Assembly: GCA_021796335.1 (NCBI GenBank)
Contig: JAJYHZ010000002.1
Location: 100,516 to 164,515, forward strand
Source of the DNA: a bacterium
GTDB taxonomy: Bacteria > Patescibacteriota > Minisyncoccia > UBA6257 > UBA9933
Direction: 5' to 3'
DNA: 64,000 bases
The notes under the pieces were generated by a model. That model was not told where the DNA came from. It saw only the letters and a program-made list of their open reading frames with translations, and did not search any database. Made by a program: the position numbers and the translations under genes. This document shows positions 1-58,238 of the stretch, piece after piece (positions within the stretch are counted from its first letter, which is position 1; each line of letters opens with the position of its first letter).

Positions 1-2046
1 TTCCATTTTGATTATTTTCGCCCTGACAAAATCGCCGACTTTCACGACGTCTTCAACTTTTTTCACGAATCCTTCTTTAAGTTCGGAAACATGAATCATT
101 CCTTCTCGTCCGCCGCCGATATCGACAATTGCGCCGAATTCCAGAATTTTAATAACGGTGCCCTCGACAATTTCTCCGATTTGAAACTCTTTGGTCAAAG
201 ACTGAATGGCGTGAATGGCCTGCTGAGCTTTTTGCATATCAGGAGCGGCAACGTAAACTTTTCCGTCCTGTTCAATATCTATTGTGGTGGCGCCGCTGGT
301 GGAGATAATCGAATTAATGACTTTACCGCCCGAACCGATAACTTCTCCGATCTGATCGGGCCTGATTTCCAATGTTAGAATAACCGGAGCATATTTGGAA
401 ACATTCTCACGCGGTTTGGCGATTGCTTTGGTTATAGTCTCTAAAATGTGCAGTCTGGCTTTTTTGGCTTGTTCCAAAATTTCGGAAAACATTCTGACGG
501 TAATGCCTTCGATTTTTACATCCATTTGAATGGCGGTGATGCCTTCTTCAGTTCCAGCGACTTTACAATCCATATCGCCGTAATGATCTTCCGGCCCCTG
601 AATATCGGTCAAAATTTTATATTTATCGGTGCTATTTTCCGTAATCAAGCCCATGGCGATTCCGGCTGCGGGTTTTTTAATCGGCACGCCGGCATCCATC
701 AAAGACATTGACGAAGCGCAAACGGTCGCCATTGAAGACGAACCATTTGAGGCTAAAATTTCGGAAACAATTCTGATTGTGTAAGGAAATTCTTCCTGGG
801 TCGGAATTAAGGGGCGAAGAGCTTTCTCAGCTAAGGCGCCGTGACCGATTTCGCGTCGGCCGGGAGCTCCCATTCTGCCGACTTCACCCGTAGCAAACGG
901 CGGAAAATTGTAATGAAGCATGAATCGCCTCTTGGTGGAAATCTCCATTGTTTCAATCATCTGTTCTGACCCGGGAGCTGCCAAAGTTGTGACTGCCAAA
1001 GCCTGAGTCCCTCCTCGGATAAATAAAGCGGAGCCATGCAGTCTTTCGAATAATCCGACTTCGGCATGCAAATCGCGAACTTCATCCAGTTTGCGTCCGT
1101 CGGGACGTAAATTCTTTTCCGAGATATTTTTATGCACCAGATCATCGATTTCTGTTTCAAAAAGATTATCGACTCCGGGAACAACGATATTTTCCTGGAC
1201 CAAATATTCATTTAATTCGTTGCGAACCTGGTCAAGATTGACATTGCGCGAAGTTTTATCCGTCTGGTAAACGGCGTCTTCTAATTTATCTTTCAAAAAA
1301 TTCCGGATTTTAGATTTTATTTCCGGATCCATCTCAGCCATTGCCACGTCGGCTTTCGGTTTTCCGATTTTCGCGGCGATGTCTTTCTGGAATTGAAGGA
1401 GTTTTTTGATTTCTTCATGAGCTTTTTCAAAGGCATCGGCAACTTCATTTTCTTTGACTTCATAACCCATCAACTCGATCATATTGATTCTTTTTTCGGT
1501 CGTACCGATAAATGCCTCGAAAGAAATATCTTCCGCTTCTCCGTTGCCCGGATTTACAATCACTTCTCCATTTTTCTTAACCAACCTGACGCCGGCAACC
1601 GGACCGTTCCAAGGAATATCCGAGATCATCAAGGCTGTTGAAGCGGTGAGAAGAGAGATAAAATCCGGGTCATTTTGTTCATCGTAAGAGAGAACGGTTA
1701 TGACAATTTGGACATCGCGACGGATCCTGTGGTCGAAAAGCGGACGGATGGTGCGATCGATCATGCGTCCGGATAAAACCGCGTTTTCCGACGGCCTCCC
1801 TTCGCGGCGCACAAAACGACTGCCGATAATTTTCCCGGCGGCATAAAATTTTTCTTCGTAATCAACTGTTAAAGGGAAATAATCAAGAGATCTGTCGGTT
1901 TTCCCCATTACAGCGGTGACTAAAACGGTCGTGTCTCCGTATTGGCCGATAACGGCGGCATTCGCTTGTTCCGCCATTTTAGAAATCGAAAGCTTGAGCG
2001 GCTTTCCCGCGAATTCCATCCGGAATTCTTTTTTATTCAATTCCAT
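1..2046 (-). CDS. pnp: polynucleotide phosphorylase (PNPase), C-terminus cut by window edge
   Basis: Reverse translation from 2046 reads MELNKKEFRMEF...DRSLDYFPLTVDYEEKFYAAGKIIGS, the conserved PNPase N-terminal RNase-PH motif. The frame stays open to position 1. It is missing from the ORF track because it runs off the window. Plus-strand ORFs 91..2152 are antisense artefacts. Confidence 0.9.
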   Translation of the reverse strand, partial: MELNKKEFRMEFAGKPLKLSISKMAEQANAAVIGQYGDTTVLVTAVMGKTDRSLDYFPLTVDYEEKFYAAGKIIGSRFVRREGRPSENAVLSGRMIDRTIRPLFDHRIRRDVQIVITVLSYDEQNDPDFISLLTASTALMISDIPWNGPVAGVRLVKKNGEVIVNPGNGEAEDISFEAFIGTTEKRINMIELMGYEVKENEVADAFEKAHEEIKKLLQFQKDIAAKIGKPKADVAMAEMDPEIKSKIRNFLKDKLEDAVYQTDKTSRNVNLDQVRNELNEYLVQENIVVPGVDNLFETEIDDLVHKNISEKNLRPDGRKLDEVRDLHAEVGLFERLHGSALFIRGGTQALAVTTLAAPGSEQMIETMEISTKRRFMLHYNFPPFATGEVGRMGAPGRREIGHGALAEKALRPLIPTQEEFPYTIRIVSEILASNGSSSMATVCASSMSLMDAGVPIKKPAAGIAMGLITENSTDKYKILTDIQGPEDHYGDMDCKVAGTEEGITAIQMDVKIEGITVRMFSEILEQAKKARLHILETITKAIAKPRENVSKYAPVILTLEIRPDQIGEVIGSGGKVINSIISTSGATTIDIEQDGKVYVAAPDMQKAQQAIHAIQSLTKEFQIGEIVEGTVIKILEFGAIVDIGGGREGMIHVSELKEGFVKKVEDVVKVGDFVRAKIIKME

Positions 2047-2233
2047 TTCATTTATCTTATGCGATGCCAATATACGAATACAAATGAAAATAAGTCAAAA
2101 TTCAAAAGTCAAATCTCAAAAACAAGGCAGTAATTTAAATTTAATTTTTTAAATCGTTTTACCTTTTGACTTTTCAATTTTGCATTATTCTCATCGCGGA
2201 TTGGCACACCGACATCGCAGTAGCATTACTTAT

Positions 2234-2749
2234 TTATTTTTTAATTAAAACCTTAGGAATCTCGGCGATATCCACGAAAAGATCGGCGGATTCTTTCAAT
2301 CTAATAGCGGCGTTTCTGCCGAAACCGGCAACCTCGACAATTCTGCCGCGTCCCCATTTCAGATAATCCAGCAGCGGAAGAAAATCTCCGTCCCCGGTTA
2401 CCAATATAATAACATCCAAAGCGTCCGCCATGCGGACGGCATCAACCGCCATTCCAACATCCCAATCGGCTTTTTTCATTCCGCTGGAAAAAACCTGCAG
2501 CTCCTTTACGCGCAAATCGATTCCGGCCTTTTCAAGCGCTTCAAAAAAAGAAGCTTCGCCAGGAGTCTCTTCGCCGGCTTGAGTTTCGCTCTTAACTACA
2601 TAGCCGAGAGCGCGAATCAAATGGCGATTTGCGGTCAAATTTTTCACCAATTCGGCATAGTTGACTTTGGAGTCGTAAAGATTTTTGGCCGAATGATAAA
2701 GGTTCTGAACGTCTATAAAGATTCCTATTCTTTGATCCTTAAACCTCAC
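2234..2749 (-). CDS. NYN/LabA-like PIN-fold domain protein
   Basis: 171 aa with IFIDVQNL and ILVTGDGDF motifs typical of the NYN (LabA/YacP-like) nuclease fold. It sits between rpsO and pnp. Confidence 0.65.
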   Translation of the reverse strand: MRFKDQRIGIFIDVQNLYHSAKNLYDSKVNYAELVKNLTANRHLIRALGYVVKSETQAGEETPGEASFFEALEKAGIDLRVKELQVFSSGMKKADWDVGMAVDAVRMADALDVIILVTGDGDFLPLLDYLKWGRGRIVEVAGFGRNAAIRLKESADLFVDIAEIPKVLIKK

Positions 2750-2821
2750 GGGTTTTGACTGCGGACTACGGGCTACGGACTACTGCAAATAAGCTGTGGT
2801 CGGTAGTCTATAGGCTGCAGA

Positions 2822-3091
2822 CTATTTTTTCAGTCCTAATTTTTTAATAACTTTTGCGTAATTTTTTTCATCGGTTTTTTCCAAATAACCGAGCAATCTC
2901 TTTCTTTTCCCAACCATCTTTAATAAGCCCCTGCGAGAGTGGTTATCTTTCGGATTCTTTTTTAGATGGCTGGTCAGTTCGGAAATCTGTTTGGTAGTCA
3001 TCGCAATCTGCACTTCAACGGAACCGGTATCGGCGTCATGTGCCTGAAAGTCCTTTATTATATTTTGTTTTTGTCGCTTAGTTAGCATGTT
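2822..3091 (-). CDS. rpsO: 30S ribosomal protein S15
   Basis: LTKRQKQNIIKDFQAHDADTGSVEVQIA...HSRRGLLKMVGKRKRLLGYL is the S15 signature. The likely start is MLTKRQK; the track ORF extends to 3127. Classic rpsO-pnp neighbourhood. Confidence 0.9.
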   Translation of the reverse strand, partial: NMLTKRQKQNIIKDFQAHDADTGSVEVQIAMTTKQISELTSHLKKNPKDNHSRRGLLKMVGKRKRLLGYLEKTDEKNYAKVIKKLGLKK

Positions 3092-3433
3092 AGGAAAGAT
3101 AATACCATAGACATCGTTATATTGCAAGTTTGATTAACACTGTTTAAAAACATCATTTATGCCCAGAGTTTATCGATCCGCGCACAACCAATCTAATATA
3201 CGAATGCAGTTCCTCGACCGCACGGTCGCGGGAAGCTTAATATTTTATCCGCCGTGGCGGATAAAATATCAGATTATTATTATTTCGCCGTATTTCTTCG
3301 ACCCCATATGAAGTTTATACGCGGCAAGCAGGCTCAGGAAATATAAATCCTGAGAGGTTTTCAAGCAACCAAATTTGATTAAAATTGAAGCTGTTTTTGA
3401 CAAAATTGATAAAATAAATAGAATTTAGATATT

Positions 3434-3520
3434 GCCCGGGTGGCGGAATTGGCAGACGCGCAGGACTCAAAATCCTGTAATCGCAAGGTTGTGTGGGTTC
3501 AACTCCCACCCCGGGCACCA
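3434..3520 (+). tRNA. tRNA-Leu(CAA)
   Basis: GCCCGGG acceptor pairs with CCCGGGC. Anticodon loop CTCAAAA gives CAA. Long variable arm. Encoded CCA (..GGGCACCA). Confidence 0.85.
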
Positions 3521-4623: not shown

Positions 4624-5124
4624 TCATTCAAACCTAACCTTAACTTTTTTGGATTTTTTCTTATCAACTTTCGGCAAAATAATCTTTAGAATTCCGTTTT
4701 TAAAAGTAGCAGACACGTGGTCGGGGTTAATTTCCTGCGGAAGAATGACTGAGCGAGAAAACCTGCCCCAGTAACACTCCTGATAAAGATAATCGCGTCC
4801 TTCGGTTTTTCCCGTGTATTCTCTTTTGCCCTTAACGGTTATGGCTTCGGGGCTTATTTCCAAATCCAGGTCATCGGCATTGACTCCGGCAATCGCAGCT
4901 TCAATGACGATATCATCGGAAGTCTGATAAACATCAATCGCCAATTGCCCCTCTCCTTCGTCAAAAATTTCCGATTCTTTTTCTTTTTCAAAGTTTGTTT
5001 CTCTCTCTTTCACGGATGACGCCTTAACTAATTGAGGTTCAAAATTTTGCTCTTCGTCGGATTCGGTGGAAACGACTCCGGCCAATTTTTCAAAGAATTT
5101 TTTCGTGTTGTCGTCGTGTGACAT
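4624..5124 (-). CDS. Hsp20/alpha-crystallin family small heat-shock protein
   Basis: C-terminal alpha-crystallin domain (RSVILPQEINPDHVSATFKNGILKIILPK) with an acidic N-terminal region. Confidence 0.8.
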   Translation of the reverse strand: MSHDDNTKKFFEKLAGVVSTESDEEQNFEPQLVKASSVKERETNFEKEKESEIFDEGEGQLAIDVYQTSDDIVIEAAIAGVNADDLDLEISPEAITVKGKREYTGKTEGRDYLYQECYWGRFSRSVILPQEINPDHVSATFKNGILKIILPKVDKKKSKKVKVRFE

Positions 5125-12096: not shown

Positions 12097-12141
12097 AATC
12101 AAATTTTGAGCGATCGCTCAAAATTTGATTGGTTATCCACA
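12097..12141 (+). repeat. dispersed 45-bp element: 34-bp perfect palindrome plus DnaA box (copy 1)
   Basis: AATCAAATTTTGAGCGATCGCTCAAAATTTGATT at 12097-12130, then GG, then TTATCCACA at 12133-12141. Confidence 0.9.
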
Positions 12142-16397: not shown

Positions 16398-18176
16398 ATG
16401 ATTAGAACAAAAATAAACCGCGAAATAACAGAAAGAAAAATAAACAGAACACAAAGGCCCAGAATATCTCCAAGAATATCCAGGCAGCCTAAAACAATCC
16501 GGGAAGCAAAAGATCAGGGCATTTTAAGGTTCGCGGCCTTGGGCGGATTGGAGGAGATCGGAAGAAACATGTCCGTTTTCGAATATAACGGGGATTTAAT
16601 ATTGATTGATGCGGGAGTTTTATTTCCGGGAGAAAGTACGCCGGGAATCGATTACATTATTCCCAATGTCAGCTATCTTGAGCCGCAAAAAGACAGGATA
16701 AAGGCGATGATCGTTACCCACGGCCATTACGACCATATCGGAGCAATCCCCTATCTGATGGAAAAATTGGGCAATCCGACGATTTATACGACTGCCATGA
16801 CCAAGGAAATAATCAAGAAGAGGCAGGAGGATTTTCCGAATGCTCCGAAACTGGATTTTGAACTGATTAAAAATCATGACAAAATCAGAATTTCCGACGA
16901 CGTGGAAATAGAATTTTTCGGAATTATTCACAGTATACCCGATACCGTTAGTTTGCTTATTAAAACTCCGGTGGGAAATTTCGTTTATTGTACGGATGTA
17001 AAATTCGATTACGATGAAAAAGGGACTGTCTTGGGCTTAGACGAGTTTGAATGGGCAGGCAAGCAGAATATTCATACCTTATTTTTGGAAAGCACGAATG
17101 CAGAAGTCGCGGGAACTTCCGTTTCGGAAAAATTAGTGGAGAAAAATATCGACGACATTTTCAACAAAGCGAAAGGAAGAGTCATTATCGGAACTTTCGC
17201 CTCGATGCTGACCAGGATCGCGGAAATCGTAAAAATGGCGGAAAAGCACGACCGCAAGGTTTTCTTCTCCGGATTATCGATGAAAACCAATGTTCAGATT
17301 GCGCAAAATCTGGGATATATAAAAGTCAAAAAAGGAACGGTGATTCCACTGGATGAACTGCATAAATATAAAGACGACAAGATTCTGATTCTATCAACCG
17401 GAGCGCAAGGAGAACCGAATGCAAGTTTGATGAAAATAGTCAACGGCGAACACCGCCAAATTCAAATCAAACCCGGAGACACGGTGATTTTTTCCTCCTC
17501 CGTTATTCCAGGAAACGAAACTCAGGTTCAGGTTCTGAAAGACAATCTGGCCAGACAAGGCGCGAAAATTTACCATTCGAAAATCGTGGACTTGCATGCA
17601 AGCGGACACGCTACGGGAGAGGAACTGCGAAAAATAATCGAATTAGTCAAACCGCAATTCCTGTTCCCGATCCACGGACAATACTTTATGCGCTCGGTTT
17701 TGGGCGAATTGGCTCAGGAAACCGGAATTCCGAAGCAAAATATCATTCTGGCGGATAACGGCCAGGTAATCGCCTTTAAAAAAGGTTCGGCGGAGATAAC
17801 TCAGGAAACTGCGCCGGCCTATTATATTATGGTTGACGGATTGGGAGTCGGCGACGTAGGAGAAATCGTCATGCGCGACAGAAAAGTATTGGCGCAGGAA
17901 GGAATGGTGGTTGTCATCGCAACATTAGATCGCCGAACCGGAAGATTTTTGAAAAACCCCGATATCATTTCGCGCGGATTTATCTACCTTAAAGAAAACA
18001 AGGAGCTTGTCGAGGAACTGAGAAGCAAAATTAAGGGAATTATTTCGCGAATACCCAGATTTCAAACCGTTGATCCGGATTACTTGAAAGCTTTAATGCG
18101 TGACCAAATCGGCCAGTTCTTGTATAATAAAACGAATCGCAGACCGATGGTATTACCGGTAGTAATACAAGTTTAA
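16398..18176 (+). CDS. rnj: ribonuclease J (metallo-beta-lactamase/beta-CASP RNase)
   Basis: HGHYDHIGA motif with a beta-CASP region. 592 aa including a basic N-terminal extension. Confidence 0.85.
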   Translation: MIRTKINREITERKINRTQRPRISPRISRQPKTIREAKDQGILRFAALGGLEEIGRNMSVFEYNGDLILIDAGVLFPGESTPGIDYIIPNVSYLEPQKDRIKAMIVTHGHYDHIGAIPYLMEKLGNPTIYTTAMTKEIIKKRQEDFPNAPKLDFELIKNHDKIRISDDVEIEFFGIIHSIPDTVSLLIKTPVGNFVYCTDVKFDYDEKGTVLGLDEFEWAGKQNIHTLFLESTNAEVAGTSVSEKLVEKNIDDIFNKAKGRVIIGTFASMLTRIAEIVKMAEKHDRKVFFSGLSMKTNVQIAQNLGYIKVKKGTVIPLDELHKYKDDKILILSTGAQGEPNASLMKIVNGEHRQIQIKPGDTVIFSSSVIPGNETQVQVLKDNLARQGAKIYHSKIVDLHASGHATGEELRKIIELVKPQFLFPIHGQYFMRSVLGELAQETGIPKQNIILADNGQVIAFKKGSAEITQETAPAYYIMVDGLGVGDVGEIVMRDRKVLAQEGMVVVIATLDRRTGRFLKNPDIISRGFIYLKENKELVEELRSKIKGIISRIPRFQTVDPDYLKALMRDQIGQFLYNKTNRRPMVLPVVIQV

Positions 18177-20952: not shown

Positions 20953-20986
20953 AATGGTATACTATCACGTGTGATAGTATACCATT
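20953..20986. repeat. 34-bp palindrome AATGGTATACTATCAC-GT-GTGATAGTATACCATT
   Basis: Perfect 16-bp inverted arms around a 2-bp centre, in the convergent gap between holA-like and the 20992..21516 gene. Confidence 0.9.
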
Positions 20987-24289: not shown

Positions 24290-24323
24290 TTTTGTCTACT
24301 ATCACGCGTGATAGTAGACAAAA
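24290..24323. repeat. 34-bp palindrome TTTTGTCTACTATCAC-GC-GTGATAGTAGACAAAA
   Basis: Perfect 16-bp arms. Inner 8 bp (ACTATCAC) are identical to the palindrome at 20953; outer 8 bp differ. Confidence 0.9.
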
Positions 24324-29470: not shown

Positions 29471-29705
29471 TGAAAAGTATATGAGGTGCGAAAAATATTT
29501 TCAAATATCTTCAGATAAATTTCAATACCAAAAACATAAAGAAGAGGGCGGAAGTTGGAAAGAAAAATCTCAGTCTGATATTTTACGCCTGTCTGCCGGC
29601 AGGCAGAATCGTCAAATATTAGATTAGTTATCCACATTTGACTGATTATCCACAACTGCGCAGCGAAACTACTTAGAAAACCGCCCCGCCAAGCGGGACG
29701 GTTTT

Positions 29706-31332: not shown

Positions 31333-31377
31333 AATCAAATTTTGCGCGATCGCGCAAAATTTGATTGGTTATCCACA
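31333..31377 (+). repeat. palindrome plus DnaA box element (copy 2, GCGCGATCGCGC variant)
   Basis: AATCAAATTTTGCGCGATCGCGCAAAATTTGATT at 31333-31366, then GG, then TTATCCACA at 31369-31377. Both arms changed together (GAG to GCG, CTC to CGC), keeping the palindrome perfect. Confidence 0.9.
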
Positions 31378-31439
31378 TAACATAAATCCAAACAATTTCT
31401 TAAACCTTATAAAAATTTAGATAAATCCTTTCAAAATAA

Positions 31440-31472
31440 AAAAAATCCGACGCGAGGTCGGGATCTTTTTGG
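31440..31472 (+). terminator. intrinsic terminator AAAAAAATCCGACGCGAGGTCGGGATCTTTTT
   Basis: CCGAC..GTCGG stem followed by a T-run on the + strand, separating the two module copies. Confidence 0.55.
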
Positions 31473-31482
31473 AACCCTGAGG

Positions 31483-31612
31483 TTGGATTATCCCGGCTAA
31501 TACCAGGTGGGTGAGCTCAATTGCAATCCGCAGACTGCAATGCTTTTACTCTCCCAATTAATCCATTATTGATCCGAGTATCACTCTCAGGTGTCCAATA
31601 TAATTATAAAAA
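31483..31612 (+). repeat. conserved ~130-bp non-coding element, copy B
   Basis: See copy A. The closing helix shows a compensatory change: CCTGAG..CTCAGG here versus CCTCG..CGAGG in copy A. Confidence 0.7.
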
Positions 31613-31648
31613 ATTAAAAATAAAATTCAATACCGAAAAAATCTATAG

Positions 31649-31687
31649 ATTTTGAGCGATCGCTCAAAATTTGATTGGTTATCCACA
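31649..31687 (+). repeat. palindrome plus DnaA box element (copy 3, left arm decayed)
   Basis: ATTTTGAGCGATCGCTCAAAAT core at 31649-31670, then TTGATTGG, then TTATCCACA at 31679-31687. Confidence 0.85.
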
Positions 31688-38051: not shown

Positions 38052-38096
38052 AATCAAATTTTGAGCGATCGCTCAAAATTTGATTGGATATCCACA
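38052..38096 (+). repeat. palindrome plus DnaA-box element (copy 4, box variant ATATCCACA)
   Basis: AATCAAATTTTGAGCGATCGCTCAAAATTTGATT at 38052-38085, then GG, then ATATCCACA at 38088-38096. It lies about 50 bp upstream of the cobO start. Confidence 0.9.
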
Positions 38097-53162: not shown

Positions 53163-53963
53163 TTACGACAATGATTTAATGGTCACCCTCCCTCCTACTG
53201 GCCCGGAGAACCGGATGACATCGCCGGAATGCACAGGCCAGTTTTGCTGATGAATCTCCACACGGTCATGCTCCACACCATTGGCGCTATAGATATGGGC
53301 CTGGGTGCCGTCCGGCCCTTTTACATCAGTTTTTCCGGCGGGGAAAGCCTTTGTAAAAAATGGCTTAGAGAGCTGGTCAAGGCCTTTCAGCTCGCAGGAC
53401 CACACCTTATAAGACGGCGTGGCGGTGGGAATTGAACTGGCCGCTATCTCTTCTTCATGCCCAGGCCTTATCTTATTCCAAGCCCATTTAAATGAGCTTG
53501 GGAAGATTATTGCCCAGACCACCCCGATGATTACAAGATAAGACACGGCTTTGAAAAACTTCTTCGCAGCCGGACCAGTCCCGTCAATCGACAACAAGAC
53601 AATCGGAACGGCCACAATAGCAACCATTCCCGGATGAAACGGTAGCCACGGCGAGAATATCGCCGCGAACATGACGACCACCAGCTCATAAAATATAATG
53701 CTGGCAATCCATGCTCGCGCCCTTTGGCCGATAATAGCAAGGAGTAAGGACCAGCCGATGGTCATAAAATACAGAAGTGCCAGTACCACCGGCACAAGCC
53801 CCACTATCGCTGTAGCGACCGGGCTGCCGTAATTAATTGCTACGATAACCGTGGCAATGGGCCAAAAAATTATTATCCGCAGGATCCATCTGGCCCACCG
53901 ATTGCCAGTATTCCATAGACGTACAACCAACTGCCATAATTCCTGTATTGACAATAAAATCAT
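53163..53963 (-). CDS. hypothetical membrane protein (GC-rich operon, gene 4)
   Basis: 4-5 TM helices, then a ~110-aa soluble C-terminal domain. GC-rich codon usage unlike the rest of the window. Confidence 0.55.
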   Translation of the reverse strand: MILLSIQELWQLVVRLWNTGNRWARWILRIIIFWPIATVIVAINYGSPVATAIVGLVPVVLALLYFMTIGWSLLLAIIGQRARAWIASIIFYELVVVMFAAIFSPWLPFHPGMVAIVAVPIVLLSIDGTGPAAKKFFKAVSYLVIIGVVWAIIFPSSFKWAWNKIRPGHEEEIAASSIPTATPSYKVWSCELKGLDQLSKPFFTKAFPAGKTDVKGPDGTQAHIYSANGVEHDRVEIHQQNWPVHSGDVIRFSGPVGGRVTIKSLS

Positions 53964-54562
53964 CTTATCCCCCTTTGGTCGAGAAAATTATTGAGGTGGC
54001 CTAAAACCCCGGCCACCCTGACATCGGCCTGCTGAAGCACAGCGGGCGCCTGTCGTATTCCCCTCCACGTCATCTGGAGGTACTGCTGAACCACATTGTG
54101 GTCCAAAAACTCCAGTATCCTGTCCCTTTCGGCGTCGGTCATGTGACCGATCTGCTTAAAAACTTCAAGCAGTTCGGTCTCGGGATCAAAATTCCCGAGC
54201 TTGAGATGACCAATCTTTCTTAGCAGTTCCTCTCCGTCCGGCCCGCCGATGCGGAGGATCATGAGGTAGAGTCGGGATAATAACTCCACGGCTTTGTTTT
54301 CATGCGGAACCCGTTGCAACCAGTCCAAAATATTCTGAGCCGCTTCCGGATCCGCATCCGCAAGAACTCTTTCGAGGAAGTGATATAATTTTTCGCGATG
54401 ATTCTCTTCTAATTCTTTCTGAAGAGTCTCACCGCCTTTTTTTACCCCCTCCTCGATAATGACTTTTGTGTGCTTTTTCACCTGTTCCTTTAATTCCTCG
54501 ACTATCGCGGTAACGACACCCGCGAAGCCAATCTCCTTCCAACTAATTCCAAATACACCCAT
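53960..54562 (-). CDS. hypothetical helical protein (GC-rich operon, gene 3)
   Basis: 200-aa ORF overlapping neighbours by 4 and 1 nt (translationally coupled). No family assignable. Confidence 0.55.
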   Translation of the reverse strand: MGVFGISWKEIGFAGVVTAIVEELKEQVKKHTKVIIEEGVKKGGETLQKELEENHREKLYHFLERVLADADPEAAQNILDWLQRVPHENKAVELLSRLYLMILRIGGPDGEELLRKIGHLKLGNFDPETELLEVFKQIGHMTDAERDRILEFLDHNVVQQYLQMTWRGIRQAPAVLQQADVRVAGVLGHLNNFLDQRGIR

Positions 54563-54563
54563 A

Positions 54564-55163
54564 TCAACCTCCTAAGTAAACTTTAACGGTTTGAATCGCC
54601 TTGCCGGCAATAAACCGTATTGTTTTTATACGTTCTGCCAGAGTGACTGAAATAGTTACTTCGGCATATCCTTCGCCATTGGCCGTAAGAACCTTTGGCT
54701 TTTTGCTATTTTCGTACATCTGAATCTGGAGGTACGGTATTGGCTTGTCTTCGGTGCTGACAACAATCGGGCGGAGCAGATATTTTCCTTTTTCAAGGAA
54801 TTTTTGCTGCACCCGGATGCACCCGACCTCAACCTTTGCGGGTTTTGGCGGCTCAGGAATGGACACGGAGTGGTAAGCTTCGCCGTGTCTGTTCTCCTCG
54901 ATAGCCTCAACCCTGTAAAATCCGGGTTTATCGAAAAAGATTTTTAGGCTTGCCTTGCCGTTGTTATCTGTCCGTTCCGGAGATTCACAATTGGTTCCAT
55001 TAATCCTGAATTGTACAGGATCATTGGAAACCGGCCAACTACCTTTTTTTACATCAACCAGCGCATGGATAAACCAGCGCTGACCTTCCTTTTGCGGATC
55101 CGTCAATGTCAGAAAAATCCTGACTGGCGGATCTGGTCTTCTTTGTTGTCGTGGTGTTGGCAT
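54564..55163 (-). CDS. hypothetical beta-sandwich (Ig-like repeat) protein (GC-rich operon, gene 2)
   Basis: Two internal repeats of strand-rich sequence (VQFRINGTN...YRVEAIEEN and IQMYENSKKPKVLTANGEGYAEVTISV). 199 aa. Confidence 0.5.
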   Translation of the reverse strand: MPTPRQQRRPDPPVRIFLTLTDPQKEGQRWFIHALVDVKKGSWPVSNDPVQFRINGTNCESPERTDNNGKASLKIFFDKPGFYRVEAIEENRHGEAYHSVSIPEPPKPAKVEVGCIRVQQKFLEKGKYLLRPIVVSTEDKPIPYLQIQMYENSKKPKVLTANGEGYAEVTISVTLAERIKTIRFIAGKAIQTVKVYLGG

Positions 55164-55394
55164 TTGAATCTCCTTTTTAATTTTTATCTTTCTCTCAGGT
55201 TTTTAGTTTTTAAAGACCTAAATTCCAGAGCGAGGATATATCCAGACTTGGATATATCTGTTCTGAAATTTTCTATATTATACCACTATTTGTTTTAAAG
55301 TCAATACCTCCGTTATGGTTCACCAGCTTGGAATCGGCCAGAAAAAAGGCGGCTTTAGAAAGCCGCCATCTATATAAAACAAGGGGAAATGAAA

Positions 55395-55892
55395 TTACCG
55401 CTTAATCCCTCTTTTTTCAAGCTCGAGCCGAACTCCTTTAATAAGTCCAGCGACGTTTTCGTCCAGTTGCCTGAACGAGTCGCCGGCGTTTTCGGCGAAA
55501 GTTCTTCCCTGAAGAACTTTGAGGCGAGTTTTTAAATCGCCTATATCGAGCTCGGCAAAGCCATTCAGTGCCTGCTTGATTTCTTCCGGTGTTCTGGAAG
55601 AAGCCAGGAAACTGACATGACCCGCCAATCCGTTGATTAAGCCATCGCCTTCTTTGTTTTTTCCGAGTTCGGACAAGTGCCCGAACATCTTGTTTTGCAT
55701 CACCGAATCCAGCTGACCGATGAAAGCAAATAGCTGATTCCGATCGGTTGTTATAAATGTCTTTGGGTGCTCTGTCATAAGCGCGCCCTTTGCGCCCACG
55801 CCACTCGCTGCTGTTTCTCTTAAAAAACTCTTTGCAAAATCTATTAAGCCCTTTTTAAAAGTACTCATATCTTTTCCTCCTTGGAAAAGCAA
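55395..55892 (-). CDS. hypothetical protein (GC-rich operon, gene 1)
   Basis: 165 aa. The start may be MSTFKKGL at 55869. No family assignable. Confidence 0.5.
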   Translation of the reverse strand: MLFQGGKDMSTFKKGLIDFAKSFLRETAASGVGAKGALMTEHPKTFITTDRNQLFAFIGQLDSVMQNKMFGHLSELGKNKEGDGLINGLAGHVSFLASSRTPEEIKQALNGFAELDIGDLKTRLKVLQGRTFAENAGDSFRQLDENVAGLIKGVRLELEKRGIKR

Positions 55893-56080: not shown

Positions 56081-56114
56081 AATCAAATTTTGAGCGATCG
56101 CTCAAAATTTGATT
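56081..56114 (+). repeat. 34-bp palindrome element (copy 5, no DnaA box)
   Basis: AATCAAATTTTGAGCGATCGCTCAAAATTTGATT at 56081-56114, then TCATATTTT instead of GGTTATCCACA. It lies between the tRNA-Leu 3' end and the recombinase stop. Confidence 0.9.
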
Positions 56115-56130
56115 TCATATTTTTAGAAAG

Positions 56131-57036
56131 CTAACTTCTCCTGCGAGCGTGAAAAGTCTTGTGAATTTCTTTCAACTCTTTATTAGTTAAATGCGTATAA
56201 ATCTGCGTCGTTGAAATATTAGAATGACCAAGCAGTTCTTGCACCGAACGCAAGTCAGCTCCGTTGATTAAAAGATCGGTAGCAAAGGAATGACGCAATA
56301 AATGCGGATGAACTTTTTTTGAAATGCCGGCCTTGCGGGAATAGAAATCAACCAGGCGCTGGATTGCGCGCGGAATAATCCGGCCGATGACTTTCGGGCT
56401 TTTCGCCTTGGTCAAACTTATAAACAACGCTTCTTCGGCATCAGAGCGCTTATCTAAATACTCTCTGATAAATTTTTTGGCGCGATCGGAAAGAAACACA
56501 ACCCGCAACTTACTCCCCTTTCCGCGGACACTTAGTTCTCCTCTTTCCAAATCAAAATAACGATTTAAACTGCAAAGTTCTGAAACGCGCAGCCCGGTGG
56601 AAAACAATAATTCCAAAATTGCCTTATCGCGGAGAGATTTCAAATCATCTCCATTCGGAGAACTCAGCAATCTTTCAAGTTCATCATATTCAATAGTTTC
56701 TATTTGGCGCGTCGGAATTTTTGGAAGCTCGATTTTATCCGGCGATAAAGTTGAAAAATCATTTTTATTTAGATATTTCAGAAAATTTCTTATGGCAATA
56801 ATGTAATAACTTTGCGTTGTCTTTTTAAACGATTCACCTTCAATATTTTCAAGCCGGGCAAGATAGATCCGGAAATCGCGAATTTTATCTATTGCAATAT
56901 CCGATTCATTTTTAATATTCCCAAACTCAAAAAATTTTTTTAAATATCTTTCGTAATTAGCCCGGGTTTTAGGCGAGCGATTTTTTTCAATTTCCAAGTA
57001 GTCCAAATAGTTTTTAAGAAGACGGTTTATTTCCAT
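56131..57036 (-). CDS. xerD: XerC/XerD-type tyrosine recombinase
   Basis: N-terminal LDYLEIEKNRSPKTRANYERYLKKF and C-terminal HPHLLRHSFATDLLINGADLRSVQELLGHSNISTTQIYTHL (R..HxxR..Y). Start taken at MEINRLL; the longer track ORF reads through a parS-like inverted repeat. Confidence 0.8.
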   Translation of the reverse strand: MEINRLLKNYLDYLEIEKNRSPKTRANYERYLKKFFEFGNIKNESDIAIDKIRDFRIYLARLENIEGESFKKTTQSYYIIAIRNFLKYLNKNDFSTLSPDKIELPKIPTRQIETIEYDELERLLSSPNGDDLKSLRDKAILELLFSTGLRVSELCSLNRYFDLERGELSVRGKGSKLRVVFLSDRAKKFIREYLDKRSDAEEALFISLTKAKSPKVIGRIIPRAIQRLVDFYSRKAGISKKVHPHLLRHSFATDLLINGADLRSVQELLGHSNISTTQIYTHLTNKELKEIHKTFHARRRS

Positions 57037-57176
57037 TAGGATAATCATACAATAATCTGTCGCAAAATAAAATGTTTCACGAATTATGTGAAACATTTTT
57101 CCCATAGTTTCCCCAATTAGTATCAGTTCTAATTAAATAGGCATTTTAGAGGTATTTTAGCAAAAACGGCAAAACC

Positions 57177-57185
57177 TGTGGATAA
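57177..57185 (-). promoter_or_regulatory. perfect DnaA box (TGTGGATAA, TTATCCACA on the minus strand)
   Basis: Exact 9-mer consensus. A weaker GGGGGATAA follows at 57197-57205. It lies in the AT-rich non-coding region with the parS array. Confidence 0.6.
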
Positions 57186-57354
57186 TTAGGCAAAGTGGGG
57201 GATAACTCGGTCAAAATGAGGTAGTTTGCCAGATTTTAGAAATGAATTTCTCTTCATGAAATCTATCTACTTTTGTAGATAGCTATAAACTAATTCAAGT
57301 TCGTGAAATTTAGCTATTATGAGTTGTTTTTCCCCCAAAAATAATCTATTCAAA

Positions 57355-57392
57355 TCTGTAAATGATGTTTCACGTGAAACATCATTTACAGA
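57355..57392. promoter_or_regulatory. parS: parS site 1 within a 38-bp perfect palindrome
   Basis: TGTTTCACGTGAAACA at 57366-57381 is the exact consensus parS for chromosomal ParB/Spo0J. Flanks TCTGTAAATGA and TCATTTACAGA extend perfect symmetry to 38 bp. Confidence 0.85.
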
Positions 57393-57404
57393 AAAGTTCC
57401 CTTT

Positions 57405-57442
57405 TTTGTCAGGCATGTTTCACGTGAAACATGCCTGACAAA
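57405..57442. promoter_or_regulatory. parS: parS site 2 within a 38-bp perfect palindrome
   Basis: TGTTTCACGTGAAACA at 57416-57431. Flanks TTTGTCAGGCA and TGCCTGACAAA. Confidence 0.85.
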
Positions 57443-57457
57443 TTTTAATGTTTCGCG

Positions 57458-57491
57458 TGTCATCAATGTTTCACGTGAAACATTGATGACA
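57458..57491. promoter_or_regulatory. parS: parS site 3 within a 34-bp perfect palindrome
   Basis: TGTTTCACGTGAAACA at 57467-57482. Flanks TGTCATCAA and TTGATGACA. Confidence 0.85.
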
Positions 57492-57507
57492 AATTTTTCT
57501 CTCTTTT

Positions 57508-57545
57508 TGTGTCACGAGTGTTTCACGTGAAACACTCGTGACACA
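57508..57545. promoter_or_regulatory. parS: parS site 4 within a 38-bp perfect palindrome
   Basis: TGTTTCACGTGAAACA at 57519-57534. Flanks TGTGTCACGAG and CTCGTGACACA. Confidence 0.85.
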
Positions 57546-57745
57546 TTTATCAATTATTCATTTATTAATATTTCACGCAAAACATTATTTCAAAAAACGA
57601 GAGGCATAGGAATATATAGATTTTGTTTTTGTTTTTTATTAAGGAATTTCATTCTTAAAATTCGTAGATCCTGGATAAATCCTTTGAATAATTCTTAGCA
57701 TTTATTTTTATAATTCTAATCGTTTCCTCCCTAAATAAAGAATAA

Positions 57746-57761
57746 TGTTTCGCGTGAAACA
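57746..57761. promoter_or_regulatory. parS: parS variant (1 mismatch: TGTTTCGCGTGAAACA)
   Basis: Single central A to G change from the consensus. Further half-sites lie at 57067-57099 (halves split by 7 nt), 57446-57458 and 57815-57838 (two direct ATGTTTCAC). Confidence 0.6.
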
Positions 57762-57781
57762 TATCCCTATAAAAAGTCTTT

Positions 57782-57802
57782 AATTCGGCAATTTGCCGAA
57801 TT
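57782..57802 (+). terminator. hairpin AATTCGGCAA-T-TTGCCGAATT plus T-run
   Basis: Perfect 10-bp stem followed by ACTTTTTT, about 50 bp upstream of yraN. It may end a + strand transcript from the parS region or attenuate yraN. Confidence 0.4.
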
Positions 57803-57854
57803 ACTTTTTTAATTAATGTTTCACAAATGTTTCACACTTATTTATACTTAATGC

Positions 57855-58238
57855 ATGAATAAATTAGAAACAGGAAATAAAGGGGAAGATCTGGCCTGTA
57901 AATATTTAAAAGAAAAGGGCTATAGAATTATTGAAAGAAATTTCAGACTTCCCTGGGGAGAGATTGATATTATTGCCAAGGCGCCCAACAAAACAGTTGC
58001 CTTTGTGGAAGTTAAGACTATGTATAATAATTCCTGCATAGGATCGGAAATATGTTTGATGCCGGAAGACCAGTTAAGCGATTCAAAATTAAGGAAATTC
58101 AAACGGATTGCCGAAGAGTATGCGAATGAATTTCCAGTAATAATTGATGATGCGGCTGGCTGGCGCTTGGATTTAATTGCGATTTCATTAAATGACAAAA
58201 AAAATTCGATAAGGCATTACGAAAATATTGATTTATAA
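57855..58238 (+). CDS. yraN: YraN/UPF0102-family predicted endonuclease
   Basis: GNKGEDLACKYLKEKGYRIIERNFRLPWGEIDIIA...VAFVEVK is the UPF0102 signature. 127 aa. Confidence 0.7.
   Translation: MNKLETGNKGEDLACKYLKEKGYRIIERNFRLPWGEIDIIAKAPNKTVAFVEVKTMYNNSCIGSEICLMPEDQLSDSKLRKFKRIAEEYANEFPVIIDDAAGWRLDLIAISLNDKKNSIRHYENIDL

Follow-up and report, generated by a model that had tools for sequence, protein, structure and literature searches.

In a 64,000-nucleotide stretch of a bacterial genome assembly (GCA_021796335.1, contig JAJYHZ010000002.1, positions 100,516 to 164,515; hereafter the window), the intergenic region between the divergent genes xerD and yraN carries a tandem array of four perfect parS sites, the sequence bound by the chromosomal partition protein ParB, each at the centre of a long perfect palindrome. 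The host, a Patescibacterium from groundwater, is Wolfebacteria-like and has a reduced genome. The array is a real, strongly non-random feature with biological meaning, and from sequence comparison we believe that it is probably (at roughly 60%) a compact chromosomal centromere at which the organism's canonical ParB would be loaded. In our reading it is neither the replication origin (oriC) nor linked to the partition genes parAB. Our literature search found nothing on chromosome segregation sites, parS or DNA binding by ParB in Patescibacteria or the Candidate Phyla Radiation (CPR), and no candidate centromere had been described in Patescibacteria before this array. It provides a concrete candidate in a large and mostly uncultured part of bacterial diversity.

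Scanning the window for the 16-mer TGTTTCACGTGAAACA, which is the canonical chromosomal parS sequence, we found perfect copies starting at 57366, 57416, 57467 and 57519 and a single copy with one mismatch (TGTTTCGCGTGAAACA, 57746-57761, without extended arms), so that four sites match the 16-bp palindrome TGTTNCACGTGAAACA perfectly and a fifth matches it with one mismatch. There are no other sites with two or fewer mismatches in the 64 kb. Five such sites compare with 0.01 expected, and none of 100 shuffled sequences reached five (0/100). A search of 20 kb of flanking sequence beyond the window, allowing up to three mismatches, found none. The first-pass annotation of this DNA would have counted common parS-like 16-mers against its reading; the motif is rare in the window and these flanks, the stretches covered.

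As that annotation had described, the four perfect sites lie within 190 bp with centres 50, 51 and 52 bp apart, and every one is the centre of one perfect palindrome of 34-38 bp. Unit 1 (57355-57392) is a 38-bp palindrome, TCTGTAAATGA-parS-TCATTTACAGA, with parS at 57366-57381; as single-stranded DNA it folds at -16.2 kcal/mol (z -7.5). Unit 2 (57405-57442, 38 bp, TTTGTCAGGCA-parS-TGCCTGACAAA, parS at 57416-57431) folds at -18.6 kcal/mol, unit 3 (57458-57491, 34 bp, TGTCATCAA-parS-TTGATGACA, parS at 57467-57482) at -14.6 kcal/mol, and unit 4 (57508-57545, 38 bp, TGTGTCACGAG-parS-CTCGTGACACA, parS at 57519-57534) at -19.4 kcal/mol. None of the units is assigned a strand. A decayed fifth unit (TATTTCACGCAAAACA, 57569-57584), with three mismatches and without extended arms, lies in register another 50 bp past unit 4. 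The units are thus tandem and regular with an inverted-repeat site in each, which is the type of iteration known from plasmid centromeres. Recent tandem duplication of the units was considered and rejected, given that the linkers between them are unrelated and their arms are identical at only 5-7 of 11 positions.

The array occupies an internal part of a 236 kb contig, and short contigs of the same species from four other samples (L122, L123, L126 and L128) have their ends in the interior of unit 4 (57512-57531). Because those contigs stop inside unit 4, the palindrome must be present in these samples and break short-read assemblies. The array sequence is real, recurrent across samples and difficult to assemble, and it is no assembly artefact. 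One further short contig (L127) was set aside as an apparent chimera joining three pieces of the window. The array matches no known RNA family either: in an Rfam search only the tRNA-Leu reached its gathering score, and the array gave sub-threshold, generic hairpin matches.

The arms of the palindromes have a fixed part and a free part. Aligned in register, the left arms of units 1 to 4 are TCTGTAAATGA, TTTGTCAGGCA, CGTGTCATCAA and TGTGTCACGAG; positions -9 to -7 are TGT in all four, the next base is C in three of four (T-n-TGT(C/A)), T-n usually precedes the TGT, and variation is confined to the last 4-5 bp of the arm. A unit can be read as T-n-TGTC, 4-5 variable bp and TGTTTCAC|GTGAAACA, followed by the mirror image. 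The outer TGTC block lies 11 bp, or about one helical turn, from the inner half-site, and this offset equals the period of two direct half-sites elsewhere in the same intergenic region (57817-57835). The composite module T-n-TGTC-N5-TGTTTCAC occurs eight times here and four times in a 373-bp intergenic region of L214, one of the closest relatives, against a background of 13 matches in 959 kb of other relatives. Among the matches listed in our scan of other phyla, none of 522 unique parS flanks carries the TGTC block, which indicates that the outer motif is lineage-specific; on the same count we rejected an outer half-site as a general trait of clustered parS.

The variable spacers differ from unit to unit and are perfectly mirrored inside each unit. 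Symmetry outside the 16-mer cores extends over 42 bp, with a chance probability of about 2e-23, and a conservative estimate that counts only the 12 clearly variable positions gives about 3e-7. The arms had first been annotated as being under selection for symmetry and not for sequence. This describes the 4-5 bp spacer well, which is free in sequence and symmetric, but not the T-n-TGTC block, which is fixed at 11 bp and shared with L214. A quasi-palindromic unit in L214 has unequal spacers, so symmetry is not obligatory for the module. The outer arms as promoters were also rejected: they match the -35 hexamer at five of six positions, no usable -10 was found on manual inspection, and the promoter scan predicts none.

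Two kinds of cause might account for the mirrored spacers. One would be mutational: template switching across the hairpin during replication would copy a change from one arm to the other, a process known to create or perfect quasi-palindromes and to maintain hairpins (PMC7202029, PMC8794818). The other would be selective, the hairpin or cruciform being kept, for example, as a transcription insulator or terminator. These possible causes are not mutually exclusive. In the same window, 34-bp perfect or near-perfect palindromes at 20953-20986 and 24290-24323 have operator-like TATCAC-G(T/C)-GTGATA cores, and the palindrome at 24290 ends in TTTTGTC...GACAAAA, resembling the ends of the parS units.

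The array stands within a dense cluster of half-sites. The whole xerD|yraN intergenic region (57043-57854, 812 bp, no strand) contains parS sites, half-sites and small palindromes. All 13 exact TGTTTCAC/GTGAAACA half-sites of the window fall within 57073-57835, with about 2.5 expected window-wide, and 13 of the 17 window matches to the half-site family are in this region, at 16 per kb inside versus 0.06 outside. Near the xerD end, two split inverted half-sites with a 7-nt spacer, AAAATGTTTCAC-GAATTAT-GTGAAACATTTT (57069-57099; half-sites at 57073-57080 and 57088-57095), overlap the predicted xerD promoter (-35 TTCACA). Near the yraN end, two direct half-sites with an 11-bp period (TGTTTCACAAATGTTTCAC, 57817-57835, + strand) follow one another, and the predicted yraN promoter (57820-57848) has its -35 inside the first. 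Both arrangements had already been noted on first reading, together with the one-mismatch site and a single perfect DnaA box at 57177-57185 on the - strand (TGTGGATAA on the + strand), and all are present; the DnaA box has one neighbour with two mismatches. The palindrome TAATTCGGCAATTTGCCGAATTA (57781-57803) represents a second motif family, CGGCAA/TTGCCG, which recurs in the clusters of relatives.

Two further observations concern the edges of the region. At 57843-57857, the predicted -10 of yraN (TATACT) stops 6 nt short of the ATG, suggesting that the mRNA is leaderless. The motif CTGTCGCAAAA at 57057-57067, which reads TTTTGCGACAG on the xerD strand, is conserved immediately upstream of xerD; it is kept even in the half-site-free relatives L217/L218, is repeated inside the L215 and L219 clusters, and probably serves as a promoter or transcription-start element or as a binding element of another kind.

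A candidate ParB for these sites exists in the lineage. A three-domain ParB is widespread in Patescibacteria, including on long contigs of several of the XerD relatives, and in L142 parA-parB lie immediately upstream of xerD (394-3437) with an insertion sequence (rve-type transposase) between. The lineage thus encodes ParAB, and no parB was found in the approximately 82 kb covered of this genome. Aligned to solved ParB and Noc structures, the lineage ParB, that of L142, has the residues GKSR (R173), T179, N184, S201 and R204, with no lysine at 179 or 184. ParB proteins that bind parS have R173 and G201, while Noc has Q173, K179, K184 and R201 (PMC7383237), so the lineage protein is of the parS type and not the Noc type.

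Based on this, we propose that ParB dimers would bind the four perfect 16-bp sites, close as CTP clamps and slide off, and that four to five adjacent loading sites would build a single strong partition complex for ParA. In vitro, more parS copies give stronger ParB condensation (PMC8299390). The surrounding lone half-sites would hold extra ParB with no spreading, and those over both divergent -35 hexamers may let ParB dampen xerD and yraN; given that half-sites overlap the predicted -35 hexamers, some transcriptional effect is possible. A more elaborate form of this reading would make the array a composite centromere site, in which the TGTC block and the arm symmetry are read by a second ParB surface or a partner, or the cruciforms are extruded, and the array is possibly the sole centromere, far from parAB; we consider it unlikely as a whole. 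More broadly, parS nested in long hairpins might be a general, undescribed design for loading ParB, which might insulate it from transcription. The array thus raises the questions of whether ParB or a partner reads beyond the 16-mer and whether the hairpin symmetry is selected or a by-product of template switching.

Several observations weigh against a centromere. No parA, parB or dnaA gene is found in the window, as first annotated, nor within 10 kb past either end (about 82 kb in total). In four relatives we searched 10 kb on either side of parAB for parS with up to three mismatches and found none (0/4 loci), and parS next to parAB as a rule in this lineage was rejected; these partition genes without nearby parS also suggest that the centromere is unlinked to the partition operon in this group. 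The regions homologous to ours in L214, L219 and L162 have dense half-site clusters and no full parS. ParB clamp loading is thought to require a full parS site, so the cluster in those genomes may serve another protein or purpose. Lastly, the lone half-sites read TGTTTCACA, which matches the DnaA box TTATCCACA at six of nine positions and the Helicobacter-type DnaA box at seven of nine.

This resemblance bears on the most obvious question about the region, whether it is the chromosomal oriC, with the TGTTTCACA 9-mers as lineage-specific DnaA boxes and parS alongside. The roughly 800-bp region is AT-rich and non-coding, it has the perfect TGTGGATAA box at 57177, and in the distant relative L204 a parS upstream of yraN is accompanied by two perfect DnaA boxes. 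In addition, yraN lies about 8 kb from dnaN-dnaA in L209, and here gyrA lies 8 kb from the array. Set against these points, the cumulative GC skew declines steadily across the window and shows no extremum at 57 kb, and the genes to the right (rpsL-rpsG-fusA, rplM-rpsI, tsaE and ftsH) are transcribed toward the array, so that highly expressed genes would run head-on into the forks if it were the origin. There is no dnaA within about 82 kb and no canonical DnaA box in the homologous regions of L214, L215, L219 and L162. One perfect box with a two-mismatch neighbour is not the DnaA-box cluster of an origin, and four of the window's six perfect boxes form the tail of a dispersed repeat that joins a palindrome to a box, AATCAAATTTTGAGCGATCGCTCAAAATTTGATTGGTTATCCACA. 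On GC skew, gene orientation and the absent DnaA-box clustering we rejected oriC, which we regard as very unlikely, and the earlier suggestion that the array marks the origin region is not supported by the same evidence. An origin-proximal position is plausible because of the distance of about 8 kb between yraN and dnaN-dnaA in L209. Elsewhere in the window, a 2-kb stretch around a pyrD-like gene has four perfect TTATCCACA boxes (29628-29654, 31369-31687), each of them on the + strand, near the midpoint of an inverted segment of about 54 kb that is described below; this could be a DnaA-regulated or origin-like region.

Comparison with related genomes shows that the sequence upstream of yraN has long been rich in half-sites, which turn over fast, and that the four-unit palindromic array is a recent elaboration in this genome. 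Conservation of the array on the xerD side was rejected, given that 80 related xerD loci (55-78% identical, about 0.8 Mb) have no parS with two or fewer mismatches near xerD (0/80), and conservation on the yraN side was rejected on a similar result for the yraN side of L209-L213, where no such site was found. In the closest relatives (L214, L215/L216 and L219, with XerD 80-82% identical), the homologous regions have 14-19 half-sites per kb versus 0.06 in 867 kb of other relatives, laid out inverted, everted and direct. There is one perfect 16-mer in L215/L216 and none in L214 or L219, and the four long palindromes are absent from all of the closest relatives and from L162. In the more distant L162 (68%), at least nine half-sites lie immediately before yraN, 5 kb from xerD, and in the much more distant L204 (56%) the sequence upstream of yraN contains a half-site and a parS whose 14-bp core is perfect; together these indicate that the cluster travels with yraN and not with xerD. 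It had been foreseen at the outset that absence from related genomes would speak against the array; the array itself is indeed missing from them, but the underlying half-site cluster is not. For the evolution of such sites, this means that a half-site region tied to yraN turns over quickly and that one lineage built four long palindromic sites from it.

Several features of the relatives' clusters were noted in passing. In L204, the parS and the half-site come after two perfect DnaA boxes and one box with two mismatches, the overall spacing of the boxes being 20 bp (17726-17847). An exact 18-mer palindrome, TTGTTTGCCGGCAAACAA, is common to the clusters of L215 (7397-7414 and another copy) and L162 (about 4866-4883), and hybrid sites such as TGTTTGCCGTGAAACA also occur. 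These sites are parS-like with a GCC|GGC core, and may be a second specificity class or the target of a ParB paralogue. A free-standing LAGLIDADG homing endonuclease gene is located divergently just upstream of yraN in L162 (4298-4768) and L209 (9476-9961), and in L162 this gene sits within the half-site cluster.

The history of the locus can also be read in terms of transcription control, with the region being an operator cluster for yraN (and now xerD) used by ParB as a transcription factor or nucleoid protein, or by an unrelated, lineage-specific protein that binds TGTTTCAC. On this view the full palindromes would be strong operators and no centromere. The -35 hexamers of both predicted promoters are inside half-sites, TGTTTCACGTTTTACA recurs just upstream of yraN in L162, L215 and L219, and the association of the cluster with yraN is what such a role would give. 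The varied half-site layouts without a full parS in L214, L219 and L162 fit a monomer-binding factor better than a clamp loader. What is difficult to explain in this way is the exact pan-bacterial parS four times over, since an unrelated factor sharing the 8-bp half-site would be a coincidence. Further, 8-13 sites over 370-840 bp go far beyond the operator needs of a small gene, yraN of L209 and L212 has no such region, and the intergenic region has eight promoter predictions versus 8.8 expected from shuffled sequence, so they are no more numerous than chance. We consider an operator cluster possible but improbable.

The palindromes could instead be structural elements, namely hairpin terminators, insulators or cruciforms whose likeness to parS is incidental. 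Each unit forms a strong hairpin, and long perfect palindromes also make up the terminators of this genome and its 34-bp repeat family. A scan for terminators (a GC-containing hairpin followed by a U-tract) passes units 2 and 3 on the + strand, but units 1 and 4 lack a U-tract and do not pass. A hairpin needs no four exact copies of a specific 16-mer, there is little transcription to terminate between divergent genes, and no Rfam family matches. In a variant of this idea, the split site AAAATGTTTCAC-N7-GTGAAACATTTT would be a dif-like Xer recombination site: it has the formal layout of one, with two inverted arms of roughly 11 bp around a spacer of 6-8 bp, and lies just upstream of xerD. Only this split site (57069-57099) has such a layout; the array units are tandem and without a spacer, four tandem recombination sites would delete themselves, and the cluster goes with yraN and not xerD. 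Taken together, we give the structural explanation, in either form, very little credence.

Tandem consensus parS also occurs well outside this lineage. In a scan of species genomes, one genome per species, at least 120 have two perfect parS sites 36-66 bp apart; the matches listed include 25 loci with three such sites and single loci with four, five and seven, and the absence of Patescibacteria among these matches is uninformative. The chromosomal arrays that we checked lie between rsmG and parA-parB, with 3-7 perfect parS sites at 34-49 bp spacing, and come from Lachnospiraceae, Collinsella, Clostridia and Acidimicrobiaceae (Acidimicrobiia), for example L083 1014-1353, L022 2083-2176, L093 6534-6655 and L112 2374-2614. 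A literature search found no description of such rsmG|parAB tandem consensus-parS arrays. In addition, tandem consensus parS was found on 61 viral contigs from IMG/VR (L225-L285), with up to eight sites at a regular period of 26-55 bp (for example L275 6137-6460 and L250 8226-8406), and only two of the 61 have an open reading frame with a ParB signature in the stretch covered, which suggests elements that borrow the ParB of their host. Compact arrays of consensus parS are thus a recurrent natural design, found on viral contigs as well as upstream of parAB on chromosomes. The statement of the first-pass annotation that parS on chromosomes normally occurs singly, at distances of kilobases, is overstated, given the pairs and arrays less than 66 bp apart in these species genomes and viral contigs; chromosomal parS is not always solitary.

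The viral contigs also give some reason to ask whether the array came with a mobile element (a phage-plasmid or integrated element) that used the host ParB and was inserted next to the recombinase gene and tRNA-Leu, and is its leftover or hitch-hiking centromere. Most of the 61 contigs have no ParB nearby, the array is absent from relatives, and its neighbours include a tyrosine recombinase, tRNA-Leu and a block of orphan genes with higher GC (53.1-55.9 kb). The recombinase is the conserved housekeeping Xer, 72-82% identical, and its linkage to tRNA-Leu is conserved in relatives; the surrounding half-site cluster predates the array in four relatives and L162; and no mobile-element genes are in the interval. 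BLAST searches against plasmid and phage collections found no match, and the composite unit is absent from the viral contigs. For these last reasons and the conserved recombinase we rejected a mobile-element origin, which seems to us highly improbable.

As a probable ParB-loading centromere, the array can be compared with several known systems. It resembles chromosomal ParABS loci in its identical 16-bp consensus, in its intergenic clustering and in the parS-type residues of the lineage ParB, and differs in that it is not beside parAB (none within about 82 kb). Unlike other chromosomal parS clusters, it is ringed by many lone half-sites and is very young, and where the palindromes of other arrays are 16-22 bp, every site here is in a 34-38 bp palindrome with the lineage-specific TGTC block. 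Extended palindromes as such are not unique to this genome: among the matches listed, 19% of clustered parS sites extend to a palindrome of at least 24 bp versus 0.4% by chance, and parS nested in long perfect palindromes was seen in L001, L005, L012, L046, L057, L095 and L116. Orthologous pairs in Streptomyces have conserved GC-rich arms (GGGGCGA-parS-TCGCCCC and GGTCA-parS-TGACC), and a parS in Treponemataceae (spirochaetes) has the shape of a terminator, AAAAAGAGCGGCCGA-parS-TCGGCCGCTCTTTTT. These other nested sites are single or in pairs with GC-rich arms, whereas here four consecutive units are all extended and have AT-rich arms with a common TGTC block; among the matches listed, loci whose palindromes all reach at least 30 bp have two sites at most, and the TGTC block is absent.

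The first-pass annotation had called the array a plasmid-style compact centromere built from the chromosomal parS sequence. The comparison is fair in that the same design is found on viral contigs and upstream of parAB, and less so in that this array is chromosomal and has no partition operon adjacent. The sopC centromere of the F plasmid consists of tandem repeats with an inverted repeat in each, and like iterated plasmid and phage centromeres our array has head-to-tail phasing of about 50 bp with one inverted-repeat site per unit. The viral arrays are closer still, with the very same 16-mer, 26-55 bp spacing and 4-8 copies. In contrast to plasmid centromeres, the array lies on a chromosome among housekeeping genes with no partition operon beside it, and its unrelated linkers and differing arms mean that it is no homogeneous tandem duplication. 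The two-block layout may also resemble P1-type parS, in which box A heptamers and box B hexamers are bound by two ParB domains; the TTTGTC outer block would be the hexamer-like element, and the TTTCAC heptamer, which is A-box-like, lies at a constant distance from it. Unlike in the P1 type, the lineage ParB is of the chromosomal type and not type Ia, and the layout here is symmetric. The lone half-sites have a counterpart in Pseudomonas aeruginosa, where ParB binds GTTTCAC/GTTCCAC heptamers in vivo as half-parS without spreading, independently of the CTP patch and of dimerisation (PMC10419367). The GTTTCAC heptamer is the same as that in our lone half-sites, although in P. aeruginosa the half-sites are scattered over the genome and here they are concentrated approximately 250-fold in one intergenic region.

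The surroundings of the array are those of a chromosome. The window encodes gyrA, aminoacyl-tRNA synthetases, RNase J, the rpsL-rpsG-fusA and rplM-rpsI operons, and pilins of the type IV secretion system kind. On the left of the array, xerD (56131-57042, - strand) encodes a housekeeping XerC/D-like tyrosine recombinase whose protein is 72-82% identical in Candidatus Wolfebacteria and other Patescibacteria. On the right, yraN (57855-58238, + strand; UPF0102 predicted endonuclease, Pfam PF02021) is followed by a receiver-domain protein and then tsaE. The usual order in relatives (most of 80 loci) is PNPase-NYN-S15 | xerD-tRNA-Leu-...-gyrA-...-S1, and in other relatives yraN comes after S1-FtsH, so the head-to-head xerD|yraN junction here must come from an inversion-type rearrangement. 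This junction is common only to the four closest relatives (L214, L215/L216 and L219). The adjacency of xerD and tRNA-Leu to the array, which had been pointed out earlier, is present but derived: xerD was brought beside the half-site cluster by rearrangement.

The block from xerD to S1 is inverted in this genome and lies about 54 kb away from S15 (approximately 3.1-57.1 kb), and its right breakpoint is the parS intergenic region. Beside tRNA-Leu(tag), an orphan block (53163-55892) has four open reading frames, one of them with a weak Big_1 match, and a GC content of 0.45-0.475 versus about 0.39; a single weak match (28%, in L154) was its only homologue in about 90 related loci, and it may be an island. 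We also observed a dispersed 34-bp perfect palindrome, AATCAAATTTTGAGCGATCGCTCAAAATTTGATT, in five copies (12097-12141, 31333-31377, 31649-31687, 38052-38096 and 56081-56114). It looks like a bidirectional terminator, and GG(T/A)TATCCACA directly follows it in four of the five copies. In the copy at 31333, a symmetric double substitution has changed GAGCG..CGCTC to GCGCG..CGCGC.

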